Positions 28,677 through 58,311 are shown, counted from the stretch's first letter. The stretch is DNA of 64,000 bases from Bacteroidota bacterium (GCA_028288625.1 JAQBNI010000049.1:771-64770), one strand, 5' to 3'. Notes: generated by a model not told the origin, from the letters alone. Made by a program: numbers and translations.

Positions 28677-29144
28677 CTACTGTTCCTTTATGCCGTACTT
28701 CTTGAGATAAGCATCTTCAGCAGCATTAAATTTTTCGTCGTAAGGTTTTTCTTTAACGGAAATATCTTTGAATAATGCCTGTATCTTTTCTTTGTATTCC
28801 TTGTTGTCAATATCCGGATCTTCTACATATTTCAGCAGCTGCCTGTATTGTTTCTCACTCACACTTAAAAAGTATTTAAACAGTTCAACAGTAGCTTTTT
28901 TTAATTGTACTTCATTATTGTATGCGGGAATACTGTCCATAATCGCAATGCTTTTGCGTATCTGGAAATTCAGGATATTTAAATTCAGCTGAGAAACCCT
29001 GTTCTTGAAAAAATATATTTCCTTGCCGATATTTCCCTGTTCCGTTTTGATCGTTTGGTAATACGTGTTCGCCGCAATATTATTTTCGGAAAAAATATTG
29101 CAGTAGGAGATGGTCAACAAAAAGAAACTCAGGATAAATTTCAA
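28677..29144 (-). CDS. hypothetical secreted protein
   Basis: 155-aa ORF with signal-like N-terminus, helical. Its stop abuts the convergent methyltransferase stop. Confidence 0.5.
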   Translation of the reverse strand: MKFILSFFLLTISYCNIFSENNIAANTYYQTIKTEQGNIGKEIYFFKNRVSQLNLNILNFQIRKSIAIMDSIPAYNNEVQLKKATVELFKYFLSVSEKQYRQLLKYVEDPDIDNKEYKEKIQALFKDISVKEKPYDEKFNAAEDAYLKKYGIKEQ

Positions 29145-29223
29145 TAGAAAATTAATTCAGTTCTATAATAGTACAAAAATTGATAATACTAATAACTAAT
29201 AACTCTTAACTCATAACTTCCAC

Positions 29224-30045
29224 TCAATGCTTCATCATCTTTAACTCATGGATCATATCGGCAAAATATTGTTTTGCATCAAATTTTGTATTACCAAAGA
29301 ACTGTGTCAACCCAACCATATCAGCATGACTCACGGAGCTTGCAGCCTCTGTTTCGATAAGCCCCCGGTAATTTCCCCACTTGCACGATTCAATCCCGAC
29401 CATGCCGTCATTTTTTCCTTCATAAGGTCGGATAATATATGCGATTGTCTTCCATAAAATATTCGGATAATCCTTATTCACGTGGCTCGCATAACTCTGG
29501 TAGTACACTTTCGACGAATCAGGAACTTCCTCATTAAATTGTTTCATTCCTTCCGTAGTAACCTGTACCACCGCGCGCAAACTATCCGGTCTTTTATCAC
29601 CCATTAATGTTGCGTATAAATTCACTAACCGCGCAGTTGCAAATTTTGGCAACGGCAATCTTCCTAAAATAATATCTGCAAGATGTGTGCCACGATGTGG
29701 TGAACCGAGCGTGGTCACACTCGAAATATGTTCGTCCATCTGCAACCTGCTCGCCAGGTAACGCGCTTCCAGCCCACCCTTGGAATGACCTATAATATTG
29801 ATCTTATCTTTTTTTGTTTTTTCAAGAATATCGAGTATTCTGAACTTCAATTTTATCGCATTATCCGGGATAGAAATAAATGCTTCCTGTTGCGCGGTAT
29901 ACACATCACAGCCATGAAGTTTTAAGAAATCGGGAATACCCGTCCAGTAATTCAATAACCGGCTTTGGTCATGAAATCCCAATCCACTCACAAGGATCAC
30001 GGGGTATTTTGTGTCGCAATAAGATAATTTCTTTTCTGGAGTCAT
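29224..30045 (-). CDS. triacylglycerol lipase-like alpha/beta hydrolase
   Basis: PVILVSGLGF oxyanion region, nucleophile elbow GHSKGG, and family I lipase-like layout. Confidence 0.75.
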   Translation of the reverse strand: MTPEKKLSYCDTKYPVILVSGLGFHDQSRLLNYWTGIPDFLKLHGCDVYTAQQEAFISIPDNAIKLKFRILDILEKTKKDKINIIGHSKGGLEARYLASRLQMDEHISSVTTLGSPHRGTHLADIILGRLPLPKFATARLVNLYATLMGDKRPDSLRAVVQVTTEGMKQFNEEVPDSSKVYYQSYASHVNKDYPNILWKTIAYIIRPYEGKNDGMVGIESCKWGNYRGLIETEAASSVSHADMVGLTQFFGNTKFDAKQYFADMIHELKMMKH

Positions 30046-30185
30046 AAATTAGTTCGGAAGCAGGAATGCAATTTTAGGTTATGTCTTTAAATAAACAAAT
30101 CATTTTATATTAAGTTTGTTGTTTAACCATGAATTAATACGAAAATAGTTGCATTTTAAAATTATTCTATTTTAATTTGTAAACA

Positions 30186-30230
30186 ATGAATAACACATTT
30201 TTCTACGGCTATTATTTTTTTCGCACATAA
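30186..30230 (+). CDS. candidate leader peptide MNNTFFYGYYFFRT of the aromatic amino acid operon
   Basis: 14 codons, of which 4 are Phe and 3 Tyr, clustered at codons 5-12. Sits 74 nt upstream of pheA and just upstream of a terminator. Confidence 0.6.
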   Translation: MNNTFFYGYYFFRT

Positions 30231-30270
30231 GCGGGACGAATCATACTGTAGCAAATTAAATAGTATAACA

Positions 30271-30298
30271 AGTCTCGAGTAAATCGGGACTTTTTTTA
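30271..30298 (+). terminator. attenuator terminator upstream of pheA
   Basis: AGTCTCG-AGTAAAT-CGGGACT (7 bp including one G-U) followed by T7. The 5' arm can alternatively pair with CGGGAC at 30232-30237, immediately after the leader stop codon. Confidence 0.6.
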
Positions 30299-30303
30299 TA
30301 ATA

Positions 30304-31140
30304 ATGAGATCGAAAATAGCCATACAGGGATTTGAAGCATCCTTTCATGAAATTGCCGCGTTACAGTTTTTCGGGAAGGATATAGAAACAGTGGAATGTG
30401 CCACTTTTCATAAGCTATTTGATGTGATGGAAAAGAACGAAGCAGGCTATGCAATTTGTGCGATAGAAAATTCTTTGGCTGGATCAATATTGCCGAATTA
30501 TGCATCGCTGAGAAATTCTGACCTGGAAATATTCGGTGAAGTTTACCTGCACATTGAAATGAATTTAATGGCGTTGCCGGGACAAAAGATAGAACACATT
30601 GAAGAAGTGCATTCTCATCCGATGGCGCTTTTGCAATGCACAGGATTTTTCGAAAATTATTCGAACATACAATTGGTGGAATCCAGCGATACGGCTTTAA
30701 GTGCAAAAGATATAAAACAAAATCATATCAAGCATCGCGGCGCAGTAGCGAGCAAGCGTGCAGCTGAATTATTTGAACTGGAAATTATTGCAGAAGATAT
30801 TCACGATAACAAAAGAAATTTTACACGTTTCCTGGCGTTGCGCAAACAGAACAATCAAAATTCGCGGAACGAGGATTTCAATAAATCATCAATTAGTTTT
30901 CGCTCGCATCATACACCGGGCAGTCTTGCAAAAGTTTTAACCGCAATTGGCGAACATAATATAAATCTTACAAAGATTCAGTCGCTGCCGGTTATAGGAG
31001 AAGAATGGCAATATTATATGTATGCCGACCTCGAGTTTGAAAATAAGGATGAGTTTGAAAAAATGCTGAATGAAATTGAACCGCTGACAAGAGAACTGAA
31101 AATTTTAGGAAAGTATAAACAGGGAGAAAAGATTCTGTAA
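30304..31140 (+). CDS. pheA: prephenate dehydratase
   Basis: PDT domain (IAIQGFEASFHE, ENSLAGSI, TRFL) plus C-terminal ACT domain (ESRP-like region, NLTKIQSLP). Confidence 0.9.
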   Translation: MRSKIAIQGFEASFHEIAALQFFGKDIETVECATFHKLFDVMEKNEAGYAICAIENSLAGSILPNYASLRNSDLEIFGEVYLHIEMNLMALPGQKIEHIEEVHSHPMALLQCTGFFENYSNIQLVESSDTALSAKDIKQNHIKHRGAVASKRAAELFELEIIAEDIHDNKRNFTRFLALRKQNNQNSRNEDFNKSSISFRSHHTPGSLAKVLTAIGEHNINLTKIQSLPVIGEEWQYYMYADLEFENKDEFEKMLNEIEPLTRELKILGKYKQGEKIL

Positions 31141-31309
31141 TGTTGAATGTTGAATGATGAATGTTGAATGATGAATTAACGTTATTCTGAGCGTGCGAAG
31201 AATCTGTTTTATAAAATTTAAAATATTGAATTAGAAAATGCAATTCCTTTTAGAATAGGAGTCTGAAAAAAATACAAAATACAACATACAAAATACAACA
31301 TAACAAAAC

Positions 31310-32476
31310 ATGATCATCGACGCTGCAAATAAATTACAACACATCAACGAATACTATTTCTCTTCGAAGCTGAAAGAGATTGCAGCGATGCGTGCAACAG
31401 GTAAAGATATTTTGAATTTAGGTATCGGAAATCCAGATCAGCCGCCATCACAACAAACCATTGATGCATTAAAATTCTCGGCTGATAATCCGAAAAATCA
31501 TGGCTACCAGAGTTATATTGGTATTCCTGCATTACGTAATGCAATCAGTGAATGGTATAAGAATACGTATGATGTTGAACTGGATCCTGTTTCCGAAATA
31601 TTGCCGTTGCTTGGATCGAAGGAAGGCATATCACATATATCGAATGCGTTTTTAAATCCCGGTGATAAAGTTCTAATTCCAAATCCCGGTTACCCAACTT
31701 ATACTTCGGCTACTTATTTGGCAGGAGCGGAGCCTGTATATTTTGATTTGGATGAAAGAAATGATTGGGCGCCTGATCTCATCAATATTCCCGCTGTTGT
31801 TTTGCGTGAAGTGAAAATACTCTGGATAAATTATCCGAATATGCCGACCGGTGCACCGGGCAATCACAAACTTTTTGAACGGTTAGTGGAGATCGCCAAC
31901 GAATTCAAAATTTTAATTGTAAACGATAATCCGTATAGTCTGGTGTTGAATGAAGACAAACCGGTTTCAATTTTCCAGGTGAAGGGTGCGAAGGATGTTT
32001 GTCTTGAATTAAATTCATTAAGTAAATCTCATAACCTTGCAGGTGCGAGAATTGGAATGGTTGCAGGAAATAAAGAATTGCTCGATACTATTTTAAAAGT
32101 GAAGAGTAATGTCGACAGCGGCATGTACCTTCCGTTGCAGGATGCAGCAATTGCTGCACTTTCAAACGATGATAAATGGCACCGTGAACGAAATAAAGTG
32201 TATGAAGAGCGGCGCGAATATGCATGGCAGATCATGGATGTTTTAGGTTGTGTGTATGAAAAGAACCAGGTGGGAATGTTTATCTGGGCGAAGATCCCGG
32301 ATGAGTTTAAGAATGCAGAAGAGCTTACGGAAAAAGTATTGCACGAAGCAAATGTTTTTATCACACCGGGTTTTATTTTCGGAAGTAACGGCGAAAGGTA
32401 TGTAAGGATCTCTTTATGCAGTCCCGTTGAAGATTTGAAAACTGCATTGCAAAGAATTAAACTAATGAAATATTGA
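31310..32476 (+). CDS. class I/II pyridoxal-phosphate-dependent aminotransferase (probable aromatic/prephenate aminotransferase)
   Basis: NPGYPTY, NYPNMPTG, SLSKSHNLAGARIG (PLP lysine). Operon context between pheA and tyrA. Confidence 0.85.
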   Translation: MIIDAANKLQHINEYYFSSKLKEIAAMRATGKDILNLGIGNPDQPPSQQTIDALKFSADNPKNHGYQSYIGIPALRNAISEWYKNTYDVELDPVSEILPLLGSKEGISHISNAFLNPGDKVLIPNPGYPTYTSATYLAGAEPVYFDLDERNDWAPDLINIPAVVLREVKILWINYPNMPTGAPGNHKLFERLVEIANEFKILIVNDNPYSLVLNEDKPVSIFQVKGAKDVCLELNSLSKSHNLAGARIGMVAGNKELLDTILKVKSNVDSGMYLPLQDAAIAALSNDDKWHRERNKVYEERREYAWQIMDVLGCVYEKNQVGMFIWAKIPDEFKNAEELTEKVLHEANVFITPGFIFGSNGERYVRISLCSPVEDLKTALQRIKLMKY

Positions 32477-32559
32477 ATGAAAAATTTACGATTTACGATT
32501 TACAATTTTTTACCGTGGACAGTGGACTGTCGTCCGTGGACAAAATATAAACAAAACTA

Positions 32560-33402
32560 ATGAAGCTTGCAATTTTCGGCATAGGATTAATTGGTGGTTC
32601 GGTAGCAAAAGACCTGCGGTCATCAGATTTTGCCGGTGAGATCTTAGGCGTTGGCAGGAGTCAAAAGAATTGTGATTTGGCTTTGCAGTTAGGATTGGTC
32701 GATAAGATCGTTTCAAAAGAAGAAGCAGTTAAAAATGCCGATTTAATTATTCTGACAGTTCCTGTCAATTATTTAGTGGAAGAACTAATTTATATTCTCG
32801 ATCATATTCAATTACACCAGGTGGTTACAGATATGGGATCAACAAAAGGAATTATTATCGACGCGATCAAGGATCATCCGAACCGCAAGCAATATGTTTC
32901 TTCGCATCCAATGGCAGGTACAGAAAATTCAGGTCCGTCTGCGGCGATCAGCAATTTATTCCGGGATAAGGTTTGTATTATCTGCGATAAGGAAAAAAGT
33001 AATGAAGATGCAGTTTCACTCGTTGAAAAAATGTACGGCATGTTAGGAATGCGCATAAAATATATGGATGCACACCAGCATGATATGCATGCTGCGTACA
33101 TCTCGCATATCTCGCATATCAGTTCGTTTGTATTAGCTGCAACGGTACTGGAAAAAGAAAAAGATGAAGAAGCGATCCTGGAAATGGCAGGCGGTGGTTT
33201 TGAAAGCACGGTAAGGCTTGCAAAAAGCTCTCCTGAAATGTGGGCGCCTATCTTCCAGCAAAATAAAAATTATTTACTCGAAGTGATGGATACTTATATT
33301 GAGAAGATGTATCACTTCAGGAATCTCATCAATAAAAATAAAAATGAAGAGTTGAAAAATTTTATGATGGAGGCGAATGAAATACGAAAAATATTGAAAT
33401 AG
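32560..33402 (+). CDS. tyrA: prephenate dehydrogenase
   Basis: Rossmann IFGIGLIGGS, SSHPMAG catalytic region, HDMHAAYISHISH. Confidence 0.9.
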   Translation: MKLAIFGIGLIGGSVAKDLRSSDFAGEILGVGRSQKNCDLALQLGLVDKIVSKEEAVKNADLIILTVPVNYLVEELIYILDHIQLHQVVTDMGSTKGIIIDAIKDHPNRKQYVSSHPMAGTENSGPSAAISNLFRDKVCIICDKEKSNEDAVSLVEKMYGMLGMRIKYMDAHQHDMHAAYISHISHISSFVLAATVLEKEKDEEAILEMAGGGFESTVRLAKSSPEMWAPIFQQNKNYLLEVMDTYIEKMYHFRNLINKNKNEELKNFMMEANEIRKILK

Positions 33403-33501
33403 TACTTAGTAGTTAGTACTTAGTATTTAGAAATAAAATTGTAATCTGAAATTAACTCATAACTCATAATTCTTAACTCTTAACTTATAACATACACAAC
33501 A

Positions 33502-34593
33502 ATGAGTAACTTAAACATCGTGCCTCTGAAAGACTGGGGCTTCAACTTCGAACGACCGGTAATTATTTCCGGTCCATGCTCCTGCGAAACAGAAGAGCAA
33601 ATGATGGAAACTGCAAAACGTCTTGCAAATAAAGGGATAGACATGTTACGCGCAGGAATATGGAAACCGCGCACACGTCCCGGCATGTTTGAAGGTATCG
33701 GCAAGGAAGGGCTTTCATGGCTCGTGAATGCCGGGAAGGAGATAGGTAAACCTACAACTGTGGAAGTAGCGACTGCGCAGCACGTAGAAGAATCTCTTGA
33801 AGCAGGCGTTGATATTTTATGGATCGGCGCACGTACAACCGTGAATCCGTTTTCCGTTCAGGAAATTGCAGACGCATTGCGCGGTGTTGATATTCCCGTG
33901 CTTGTAAAAAATCCAATCAATCCCGATCTGCAGTTGTGGCTCGGCAGTATGGAACGTTTAAATGCTGTTGGCATTACAAAACTCGGCGCTATTCATCGCG
34001 GTTTTTCTGCTTACGAAAAATCTAAGTATCGTAATATTCCGATGTGGGAATTGCCGATCGAAATGCGACGCTTATATCCATCCATTCCGATCATTGTAGA
34101 TCCTTCACACATTTGTGGTTCAAGAGAATTACTATTATCCGTTTCTCAGAAAGCGCTCGATCTTGATTTCGATGGATTGATGATCGAATCTCACCGTGAT
34201 CCGGACAATGCATGGAGCGATGCAGCACAACAGGTAACACCTGAACGTCTCGGCGAAATAATTTCTACGTTGATCGTGCGAAGCAGTAAGCTTACAGACT
34301 TTGCAGAAAATAAATTGGAAGTATTGCGCGCGCAGATCGACAGGATAGACAACTATATGCTGGAGATCATGGGAGAAAGAATGGACATTGCACGCAAGAT
34401 CGGCGAGTTTAAACGTGATAATGGAATTACCATCCTGCAAACAAATCGCTGGGATGAGATCATCAACGATAGAGTAAAGAAAGCAGCTAAAAAAGATCTG
34501 ACTGAAGACTTCGTAAAGGATATGATGGAAGCGATACACCAGGAATCGATCCGTCACCAGACAAAAATTATGAACAATATTTTAGCCGAATAG
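33502..34593 (+). CDS. bifunctional 3-deoxy-7-phosphoheptulonate (DAHP) synthase (type I-beta) / chorismate mutase type II
   Basis: KDO8P/DAHP-synthase barrel motifs (ISGPCSCE, RAGIWKPRT, VDPSH) and a C-terminal AroQ helix bundle (LRAQIDRIDNYMLEIMGERMDIARKIGEFK). Confidence 0.9.
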   Translation: MSNLNIVPLKDWGFNFERPVIISGPCSCETEEQMMETAKRLANKGIDMLRAGIWKPRTRPGMFEGIGKEGLSWLVNAGKEIGKPTTVEVATAQHVEESLEAGVDILWIGARTTVNPFSVQEIADALRGVDIPVLVKNPINPDLQLWLGSMERLNAVGITKLGAIHRGFSAYEKSKYRNIPMWELPIEMRRLYPSIPIIVDPSHICGSRELLLSVSQKALDLDFDGLMIESHRDPDNAWSDAAQQVTPERLGEIISTLIVRSSKLTDFAENKLEVLRAQIDRIDNYMLEIMGERMDIARKIGEFKRDNGITILQTNRWDEIINDRVKKAAKKDLTEDFVKDMMEAIHQESIRHQTKIMNNILAE

Positions 34594-34612
34594 GTCATAA
34601 AGAAGACAAAAA

Positions 34613-34661
34613 GCTAATAATCAACCCTTTGATAAATTGTTGAATTGTTAGCTTTTTTTTT
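34613..34661 (+). terminator. intrinsic terminator of the aromatic operon
   Basis: GCTAATAATCAAC ... GTTGAATTGTTAGC imperfect 13-bp stem followed by T9. Confidence 0.6.
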
Positions 34662-34754
34662 GTTTCGCGTGGCTCATTGGGAAAATATAGGCTTTATACG
34701 GTATTCTTTATTAAATTTGGCGCATTAGTTATTCATCAATTAAAATTTATAAAA

Positions 34755-34961
34755 ATGGACAAAACAAAAATGATCAAGGCATATTGCCTTAAGACAAAGG
34801 AGAAAGATGTGCCTATGCTTGATGCAGTTGTTACTAAAACAGCAAGAGGTGGCTATATGGCAACAGGAAACGATGGCAAAGGAAATAAAATGGCTGCTAT
34901 CATGGGTGAAGCAAAAGCTTTACAGGCAATTAAAGACGGCGTAGCAAAAAAAGGATTCTAA
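34755..34961 (+). CDS. small Lys-rich hypothetical protein (68 aa)
   Basis: ATG at 34755 (MDKTKMIKAY...). Bracketed by two intrinsic terminators, so it is a monocistronic unit. Confidence 0.5.
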   Translation: MDKTKMIKAYCLKTKEKDVPMLDAVVTKTARGGYMATGNDGKGNKMAAIMGEAKALQAIKDGVAKKGF

Positions 34962-34987
34962 TCTCCAACGGAATTTAAAATCTAAAA

Positions 34988-35015
34988 GGTCAGCGATAAA
35001 CGCTGACCTTTTTTT
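34988..35015 (+). terminator. intrinsic terminator
   Basis: GGTCAGCG-ATAAA-CGCTGACC followed by T7. Confidence 0.85.
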
Positions 35016-35114
35016 ATTGGAAGATTCTCCATGATTAAATCCATCAAAAATCCTACATTTATAAATGAATTCTTGTTGTGCTTACCTTTCGGATATCCAA
35101 CTGAAGATAATAAG

Positions 35115-35660
35115 ATGATAAACAAAATGAAAAAAACCAAATTATTTACAACTGCCACTATTGGAATATGGCTGTTAGTTTTAATTACAAGTTGTAAAAG
35201 CGAACCATCACAGGAATGCATCCCGTTAAAGACAGCCAATGAACAATTGGCAGCAAACCTTAAAATGTATGAAACAACCTGGAATGAAATTATCAACAAA
35301 GGAAAACTTGACTTGATAAACGAAACCAATTTCGATAAAAGCATTACACTTATCAGCAGTCCTAAAAAAATAGTGGGTATAGAAGGATTCAAGGCGTATT
35401 ACAAAAACTATCTTACTGGATTTTCAAATATTACATTTACTATTGTAGACGCCTTTGGACAAGGTGATAAAATTGTAAAACATTGGAATTTCAAGGGTAA
35501 ACATACAGGAGATTTTTTTGGAATTCCTGCGACTGGTAAAGATGTAAATGTTGATGGCGTAACACTAGTAAGAATGAAAAACGGAAAAATTGCACAGGAA
35601 CAGGATTTCCTGGACAATTTAGAATTTATGCAACAACTTGGAATTATTCCAAGACAGTAG
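35115..35660 (+). CDS. SnoaL-like ester cyclase family lipoprotein
   Basis: Lipobox LVLITSC after MINKMKKTKLF. C-terminal ester-cyclase core (VKHWNFKGKHTGDFFGIPATGKDVNVDGVTLVRMKNGKI). Confidence 0.7.
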   Translation: MINKMKKTKLFTTATIGIWLLVLITSCKSEPSQECIPLKTANEQLAANLKMYETTWNEIINKGKLDLINETNFDKSITLISSPKKIVGIEGFKAYYKNYLTGFSNITFTIVDAFGQGDKIVKHWNFKGKHTGDFFGIPATGKDVNVDGVTLVRMKNGKIAQEQDFLDNLEFMQQLGIIPRQ

Positions 35661-57867: not shown

Positions 57868-58311
57868 ATGAAGAAAAAGGATATTTATTATATTGTCTTG
57901 GCTGATGATGATGCAGATGATCGTGAATTGTTTCGCGAAGCATTGAATGAAACCCATAAGACAAACTTTAAAACTGCAAAGGATGGTTTATCGTTGATGC
58001 AGTTACTCAAAGATAGTAAGGAATTGCCTGATGCGATTTTCCTGGATCTGAACATGCCGCGCATGGACGGACATGCATGTTTGAAAGAAATAAAAAAAGA
58101 TAAAAAACTTCACGATATACCTGTGGTAATTTATTCCACTTCAAAAAGCCCGCAATATATTGAAGAAACATATAAAGACGGAGCAAGCTTATATATTACC
58201 AAGCCGGATTCTTTTACAAAACTTAAGAAAGTAATGGAAAAGGTCTTTTCCCTCGATTGCGATCATTATGTTCCGCAGCCTCCGAAAAATGAATTTGTGC
58301 TGGCTGTGTAA
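57868..58311 (+). CDS. CheY-like single-domain response regulator
   Basis: VLADDDADDRELF, LDLNMPRMDG, ITKP. 147 aa. Confidence 0.85.
   Translation: MKKKDIYYIVLADDDADDRELFREALNETHKTNFKTAKDGLSLMQLLKDSKELPDAIFLDLNMPRMDGHACLKEIKKDKKLHDIPVVIYSTSKSPQYIEETYKDGASLYITKPDSFTKLKKVMEKVFSLDCDHYVPQPPKNEFVLAV

Follow-up and report, generated by a model that had tools for sequence, protein, structure and literature searches.

The pheA operon and its leader region

The window analysed here is a 64,000-nt stretch of DNA from a Bacteroidota bacterium (GCA_028288625.1 JAQBNI010000049.1:771-64770), in which all positions are counted from the first letter of the stretch. An operon of four genes is found on its plus strand: pheA, encoding prephenate dehydratase (30304-31140), a gene for a PLP-dependent class I aminotransferase (31310-32476), tyrA, encoding prephenate dehydrogenase (32560-33402), and a gene for DAHP synthase fused to chorismate mutase (33502-34593). 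The identity of pheA is based on the NCBIfam prephenate dehydratase models (E = 2.6e-60) together with PF00800 and the ACT domain in its homologues, and tyrA matches NF006307 with 358 bits vs a cutoff of 295. The domain and NCBIfam models return the same operon content as was given in an earlier note on this DNA. The products of the operon are exactly Phe and Tyr, which are also the amino acids specified by the leader codons described below. The nearest PheA proteins, with 82% identity, come from Chitinophagales metagenome-assembled genomes (MAGs), and the DNA of the stretch itself was matched in one soil metagenome run only.

Upstream of pheA lies a leader ORF of 14 codons, MNNTFFYGYYFFRT followed by a stop codon, which occupies 30186-30230 on the plus strand with its ATG at 30186 and its TAA at 30228-30230. 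The pheA ATG at 30304 is located 73 nt past this stop codon. Direct reading of the sequence confirms that seven of the eight central codons specify Phe or Tyr; these regulatory codons (F5, F6, Y7, Y9, Y10, F11 and F12, with G8 between them) occupy 30198-30221 and are marked out by codon conservation and by the footprint-constrained folds. When all six frames of the 64 kb were examined, only two windows with at least seven Phe or Tyr in eight codons were observed, where 0.13 would be expected under a first-order Markov model. The other one, at 58107 on the minus strand, was set aside as the antisense frame of an ORF.

The leader ORF is followed by an intrinsic terminator with the arms AGUCUCG (30271-30277) and CGGGACU (30285-30291), which had already been recognized in the earlier note and which extends to 9 bp (30270-30278 with 30284-30292), with a hairpin energy of -11.0 kcal/mol. 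The run of T behind the terminator does comprise seven residues as was reported before, but it ends at 30297 and not at 30298; the U7 tract (30291-30297) therefore stops 6 nt before the pheA ATG. This terminator is one of just two strong terminator-like sites on the plus strand between 29000 and 35500, and it is not attributable to the upstream gene because the gene 5' of the element runs divergently.

Some other features were observed in and around the operon. The strongest terminator of the region scanned (29000-35500) is a 12-bp hairpin at 34984-35012, located 3' of a small ORF that follows the operon (34756-34961, about 68 amino acids from the ATG at 34756) and is without an NCBIfam match. 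A short tandem repeat, TGTTGAATGTTGAATGATGAATGTTGAATGATGAAT, is found directly after the pheA stop codon and is followed by CGTTATTCTGAGCGTGCGAAGAATCTG (31139-31205). Many metatranscriptome contigs with unrelated flanks match residues 31139-31176, with a summed depth of 86, and since these contigs differ in their flanks the segment is considered to be a dispersed repeat. No further candidate leader-peptide attenuator was found in the 64-kb window besides the pheA element.

Alternative pairings and their conservation

Folding of residues 30180-30303 (124 nt) gave a minimum free energy (MFE) of -28.2 kcal/mol vs -13.0 +/- 2.6 kcal/mol for shuffled sequences (z = -5.9), with none of the 200 shuffles being as good. 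The full MFE structure consists of the terminator and of a second hairpin, missed by the earlier note, in which 30203-30224 pairs with 30231-30251 to form an interrupted helix of 19 bp (-15.1 kcal/mol). This hairpin overlaps the Phe/Tyr codons and completes the classic 1:2 / 2:3 / 3:4 layout of an attenuator. Segment 1 (30203-30224), which is supported by the MFE pairs, by conservation and by RNAalifold, forms the 5' arm of the putative anti-antiterminator or pause hairpin 1:2. Segment 2 (30231-30251) is the partner of segment 1, or, through its residues CGGGAC (30232-30237), of segment 3, the terminator 5' arm (30270-30278), where GUCUCG (30272-30277) forms the alternative pairing as had been suggested before. 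Segment 4 (30284-30297) comprises the terminator 3' arm at 30284-30292 plus the U7 tract and is supported by the fold and by conservation. All of these segments are read on the plus strand.

An inner helper hairpin, AUACUGU / AUAGUAU (30243-30266, plus strand), belongs to the antiterminator conformer and was obtained in the MFE structure with segment 1 masked. The helper stem described earlier does exist, although its ATACT arm is located at 30243-30247 instead of 30244-30248, and it extends to 7 bp (30243-30249 with 30260-30266). When segment 1 was masked and segment 4 was absent, the MFE structure was indeed the antiterminator that had been claimed, together with its helper hairpin (-12.8 kcal/mol). 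The antiterminator core is formed by 6 bp only, and with segment 4 present the terminator conformer (-15.0 kcal/mol) is favoured by about 2 kcal/mol over the antiterminator conformer (-12.9 kcal/mol). Since the terminator conformer is more stable once segment 4 exists, the switch must act kinetically, and a kinetic decision is usual for attenuator switches of this type.

The folds were also constrained with a ribosome footprint of 13 nt beyond the A-site. With a stall at F5-Y7, the top of hairpin 1:2 (UUUCGC/GCGGGA) was observed to survive, whereas a stall at Y9 or later released segment 2. A ribosome on the stop codon was found to mask segment 2. Because the stalls at F5-Y7 leave the top of hairpin 1:2 intact and those from Y9 onward do not, the effective sensing codons are probably Y9, Y10, F11 and F12, that is, two Tyr and two Phe codons.

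The element was recovered in 34 related loci and pheA was observed to be the next gene in every locus with downstream sequence. When GTDB species genomes were searched with a PheA alignment, 33 pheA loci were obtained, and 23 of them carry the same element. In a second, unbiased scan, metagenome contigs were searched with a pattern taken from the leader itself; this gave 10 loci, and all nine of those with downstream sequence run into pheA and the operon. The F/Y-rich mini-ORF and terminator that were sought upstream of pheA in relatives are thus found there, with the alternative pairing conserved. A canonical intrinsic terminator, formed by a hairpin and then U6-U9, is present in 34/34 copies. 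The covariance model R1 gave a single match per leader-bearing locus (68-130 bits) without any further match in 332 kb, and its one match in the 64-kb window covers 30186-30297 with 118 bits.

Pairing was counted on an alignment of 24 sequences (A2). In the terminated conformer 92.7% of the cells are paired, whereas a shift of the partners by 1-3 columns leaves 40-48%. Hairpin 1:2 (19 bp in the relatives) has 90% of its cells paired and the terminator stem has 98%, while the corresponding figures are 93.5% for the antiterminator core and 77.5% for the inner helper hairpin. Compensatory changes were observed in five pairs of hairpin 1:2 and two-sided changes in six pairs of the terminated conformer; as the relatives are close (effective sequence number of 1.98 in the model), few independent events underlie these changes. 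RNAalifold independently yields hairpin 1:2 and the terminator. We noticed that alignment column 93, which is part of segment 3, covaries with its partner in segment 4 (CG 9, UA 8, UG 6) and also with its partner in segment 2 (AU 13, GC 7). This dual covariation is read as the mark of two pairings that exclude each other.

Conservation also extends to the coding content of the leader. Across 21 unique ORFs of the relatives, codons 5-7 and 9-12 were observed to be exclusively Phe or Tyr, and codon 5, which is not part of any helix, reads Phe in 10 and Tyr in 11 of them. The third codon positions differ synonymously in these ORFs (TTT/TTC, TAT/TAC and GGC/GGA/GGT), codons 2-4 are free to vary, and the differences in ORF length are always multiples of 3. 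Swaps between Phe and Tyr alter the paired second base of the codon yet preserve the amino-acid class. The peptide core YGYYFFR is strongly conserved among the relatives. The codon pattern points to selection on codon identity and hence argues for translation of the leader ORF.

Several departures from this arrangement were observed. L011 is the sole relative in which the leader starts with GTG (at 2517) and not with ATG; initiation may be weaker there if the mRNA is leaderless. A one-base deletion has removed the leader stop codon of L009 (2882-2935), where the alignment has TT-GG for TAAG, and the leader ORF gains three codons that cross segment 2 before a TAA is reached (MNTMFYYGYYFFRSWRD). 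A ribosome at this new stop codon would still cover segment 2. The distance between the U-tract and the pheA ATG, which is 6 nt in the window, is 11-25 nt in many relatives. Insertions of 60-160 nt are found between the U-tract and pheA in L004 (2088-2186), L010, L011, L036 and L041 as well as in L008, L016 and L043, and the insertions carry a palindromic element of the GTCATTGCGAG...CGAAGCAATC type and a AAAGTCCCTTTAGGGATTTAG hairpin. Because these insertions separate the U-tract from pheA, the terminator need not abut the pheA start.

The loci L020-L022, whose PheA is 72% identical, have neither a leader ORF nor a terminator in the region about 120 nt upstream of pheA. The attenuator has been lost or replaced in these loci and, since it is absent from them, the element is dispensable. 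A different ORF of 34 codons, rich in F, G and Y (MNLTPNNKNFNTVNAFGFFFGYFGYYFKLPKRRF), is found in L028 and L033 (2761-2919 in each) accompanied by a hairpin 1:2 and a terminator, and the 3' arm of this terminator, CGACGGUC, repeats segment 2 (CGACGGU). Both loci are among the MAGs labelled Pyrinomonadaceae (Acidobacteriota), in which PheA is 65-72% identical to that of the window. With 17.8 bits, R1 detected no homology in the Pyrinomonadaceae leader. The same design may be realised here in an independent attenuator, and a transfer of the operon from one phylum to another is a possibility.

Promoter elements and the transcript 5' end

A scan for sigma-70 promoters gave sites that were no commoner than in shuffled sequences, and sigma-70 is the wrong model for Bacteroidota. 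The promoter was read instead with the Bacteroidota consensus from the literature, TTG / TAnnTTTG (PMC9723704). A -33 element TTG of the Bacteroidota sigma-A type is located at 30149-30151 on the plus strand, with the -7 box following 19-21 nt downstream. The -7 element TAATTTGT (30173-30180, plus strand) matches TAnnTTGY; when the region is read as TTAATTTG (30172-30179), it is one letter off TAnnTTTG. The 66 nt 5' of the leader AUG were observed to be highly conserved, with TAnTTTG (30173-30179) and TTG being invariant, and no conserved RNA structure was detected in these 66 nt (alifold empty; z = -0.9).

The invariant TTTG is located just 4-6 nt before the leader start in 24/24 sequences. 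A previous study has shown that the sigma-A -7 box TAnnTTTG of Flavobacterium psychrophilum occupies -12 to -5 (PMC9723704). Because a -7 box normally takes this position, the spacing of 4-6 nt between TTTG and ATG would place +1 on the AUG or 1-2 nt before it. A contig from a plant-associated metatranscriptome (X6; 151 nt, which equals the read length, depth 6.2) spans 30185-30335 and runs through the terminator. Promoter spacing and the start of this contig give a predicted transcription start at 30185-30186 on the plus strand, with a 5' UTR of 0-1 nt. The leader ORF might then be leaderless, with +1 on the AUG or 1 nt before it, and we regard the chances of this as about balanced. In B. thetaiotaomicron 3.7% of the 5' UTRs are shorter than 10 nt, and leaderless mRNAs, at about 4-6%, are rare in the phylum, with 5.5% in F. 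psychrophilum (PMC9723704).

Two observations speak against a leaderless start. A contig of X26, a wastewater library labelled 'METAGENOMIC RNA-Seq', is identical to the relative L025 and extends to 43 nt 5' of the AUG, the rest of the intergenic region being uncovered. A perfect Bacteroidota -7 box, TAAGTTTG, is found at 30111-30118, some 70 nt 5' of the leader AUG; it was observed to be conserved in about half of the relatives only. This box could be a second upstream promoter with a start near 30124, which could also explain the upstream coverage of L025. The runs X10-X18 on L007 and X28-X34 on L025 gave patchy contigs without informative 5' ends, and X11, which covers the entire intergenic region, may contain DNA. 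Two X26 contigs that are about 80% identical over 36 nt of the promoter and have unrelated flanks were considered as a recurring promoter cassette and possibly a second leaderless mini-ORF. This reading was rejected because, as a rough estimate, about a hundred chance matches at 80% would occur for an AT-rich 36-mer in a library of 3.4 Gb.

An upstream box, TTAACCATGAATTAATA, is located at 30123-30139 on the plus strand (-63 to -47 from the leader AUG) and forms a TTAAC-N6-TTAAY direct repeat whose spacing equals one helical turn. Among 22 aligned promoters it hardly varies, and one copy is present per locus, the window likewise having one. The box looks like a transcription-factor site and is thus a candidate for a second layer of control. 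The loci L020-L022 keep this box and TTG/TAATTTG at identical spacing despite having no leader ORF, and such a promoter geometry fits a promoter and a factor-binding site that would act at the DNA level. Like the lack of conserved RNA structure in the 66 nt and the start of the X6 contig, it speaks for a leaderless start.

Proposed attenuation mechanism and related systems

Clustered cognate codons, an intrinsic terminator, an exclusive antiterminator and a 1:2 hairpin that overlaps the codons are all present in this element. In agreement with the earlier note, it is most probably a ribosome-mediated (leader-peptide) transcription attenuator of the pheA-aminotransferase-tyrA-DAHP synthase/chorismate mutase operon, a reading supported by the folds, by the conservation of the ORF, its codons and its stop, and by three helices with compensatory changes. 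From these sequence features we infer translation of the ORF, stalling of the ribosome, the position of the transcription start and regulated readthrough.

The inputs of the sensor would be charged tRNA-Phe and tRNA-Tyr. Transcription is predicted to start from the sigma-A promoter (TTG 30149-30151, TAATTTG 30173-30179) at the AUG at 30186 or 1 nt before it, and a ribosome would then translate the 14-codon ORF. When Phe and Tyr are both plentiful, the ribosome at the UAA (30228-30230) would cover CGGGAC (30232-30237) and segments 3 and 4 would pair; the terminator (30270-30292) and U7 would then release a leader RNA of about 112 nt. In the case of no translation, or once the ribosome is gone, hairpin 1:2 (-15 kcal/mol) would sequester segment 2 and lead again to termination. 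When Phe-tRNA or Tyr-tRNA is scarce, the ribosome would stall at Y9-F12 and cover segment 1, leaving segment 2 free. The nascent segment 3 would then pair with segment 2 (-12.8 kcal/mol), no terminator would form and the polymerase would read into pheA.

The same switch might also work mainly on translation, where the choice between the 3:4 and 2:3 pairings opens or closes the initiation region of pheA and either replaces termination or adds to it. Initiation in Bacteroidota depends on unstructured, A-rich start regions. In the window, the terminator hairpin ends 12 nt and the U-tract 6 nt before the pheA AUG, with the U-tract at 11-25 nt in many relatives, and translation initiation in Bacteroidota is independent of the Shine-Dalgarno sequence (PMC9723704), all of which would suit control at the start codon. 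We nevertheless consider this unlikely, as the element is fully conserved in L004, L010, L011, L008 and L016 with 62-160 nt between the U-tract and pheA, and the hairpin with U6-U9 has the form of a canonical intrinsic terminator in every one of the 34 copies.

Very little probability is given to a reading in which the ORF is untranslated and the terminator and antiterminator respond to a protein or a ligand, for example through an RNA-binding attenuation protein or a riboswitch of unknown type, and in which the Phe/Tyr codons are a by-product of a U/A-rich stem. Segment 1 does span codons 6-13 and pairing alone would constrain much of the ORF; however, the helix-free codon 5 never departs from Phe or Tyr although its neighbours, codons 2-4, vary freely, and the Phe/Tyr swaps change a paired base and keep the amino-acid class. 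Start, stop and frame are also conserved with indels in multiples of 3. There is no Rfam riboswitch or T-box match, since models of these classes gave no hit in 29900-30500 at E up to 10, nor at gathering thresholds across the window. The idea that the terminated leader RNA (about 112 nt) or else the peptide of 14 residues acts in trans, as with rnTrpL/peTrpL of Sinorhizobium, and that control of pheA is secondary, seems more improbable still. The element is confined to the region before pheA, and codon identity together with pairing fully account for the conservation. This weighs against the high conservation of the peptide core and the precedent for attenuator-derived sRNAs and functional leader peptides (PMC7298713, PMC7968998).

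Ribosome-mediated attenuation of the operon is therefore the preferred reading, and the element can be placed among systems of this kind. The Rfam model RF01859 (Phe_leader) aligns end to end with 30185-30299 at 24.9 bits vs a gathering score of 55 (E = 0.075), and because its score is lower than 55 the element lies outside Phe_leader by the Rfam criterion. No Rfam family was observed at its gathering score anywhere in the 64-kb window. The pheL-pheA system of E. coli resembles the window element in its ORF of 14-15 codons, its dense regulatory codons, its 1:2/2:3/3:4 pairings and its terminator before pheA. In contrast to the mixed Phe and Tyr codons of the window leader, pheL has Phe codons only. 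The window operon also adds tyrA, the aminotransferase and DAHP synthase/chorismate mutase to pheA, and its promoter is of the Bacteroidota type and probably without a 5' UTR or a Shine-Dalgarno sequence.

Candidate attenuators in Bacteroidetes/Chlorobi are said to have been reported in the attenuator survey of Vitreschak et al. 2004. In F. psychrophilum, pheA-aspC3 is preceded by a Phe/Tyr-rich leader, MNTNNTFYSNNSFYFYWNIGRDCYMVI, for which leader-peptide attenuation has been proposed (Guérin 2021, PMC9723704, Table S7). The novelty that the earlier note saw in a dual Phe+Tyr leader in Bacteroidota is weaker on account of this F/Y leader before pheA. A transcription start has been mapped upstream of pheA in F. 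psychrophilum, and its hisG, pheA and trpE operons show condition-dependent readthrough with expression being highest in minimal nutrient media (PMC9723704). The same authors noted that Flavobacteriaceae conserve the pheA element and that Rfam does not include it. It has in common with the window element the phylum, an F/Y leader, a terminator before pheA-aminotransferase and the same pairing logic, where GGGAUUGU is able to pair with the terminator 5' arm in the manner of segment 2. The F. psychrophilum leader has 27 codons, a Trp codon included, and is preceded by roughly 20 nt of 5' UTR, whereas the window leader has 14 codons; segment 2 is found within the ORF in F. psychrophilum and just past the stop codon in the window family. 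An nhmmer comparison of the A2 profile with the published 170-nt F. psychrophilum element gave 2.4 bits from terminator letters only and detected no homology. Being below the Phe_leader threshold and without similarity to the F. psychrophilum leader, the element is considered to be a new family.

The Bacteroidetes tryptophan peptide leader RNA, an earlier in silico finding in Bacteroidetes genomes (PMC9723704 supplement), is another Bacteroidota leader-peptide attenuator of an aromatic amino-acid operon. It has Trp codons and precedes the trpE operon, whereas the window element has Phe/Tyr codons and precedes pheA, and a search of the 64-kb window gave no match to it. With respect to the AUG at the 5' end, leaderless polycysteine short ORFs of mycobacteria are reported to affect operonic gene expression (bioRxiv 10.1101/834739), and leaderless leader peptides are described for Deinococcus deserti (PMC4007540). 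In these cases a regulatory short ORF at a 5'-terminal AUG reportedly tunes its operon by the supply of the encoded amino acid. These cases are from other phyla and sense another amino acid, and the leaderless status of the window element is a predicted one.

On the basis of the comparative data, the element is regarded as an uncatalogued family of a known attenuator kind in Chitinophagales of soil and wastewater. The new points are the family itself, the three-way covariation seen in it and an AUG that is probably 5'-terminal. With the alignment, the consensus structure and the covariance model, the family could enter RNA family databases and genome annotation. The three-way covariation is also part of the comparative support now provided for leader-peptide attenuation in Bacteroidota, which was earlier based mostly on single-genome predictions. 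The family is predicted to govern Phe/Tyr biosynthesis in uncultured Chitinophagales of soil and wastewater. It might be a leaderless 112-nt sensor that extends from the first nucleotide to the U-tract and is conserved in a Chitinophagales clade, with the TTAAC-N6-TTAAY box adding protein-based control, a proposal that stands at roughly even odds in our view. If true, this would be a minimal attenuator that is obligatorily coupled to the 5' end and the first such in Bacteroidota. If the leaderless start holds, the element would offer a compact system for transcription-translation coupling with non-canonical promoters and no Shine-Dalgarno recognition.
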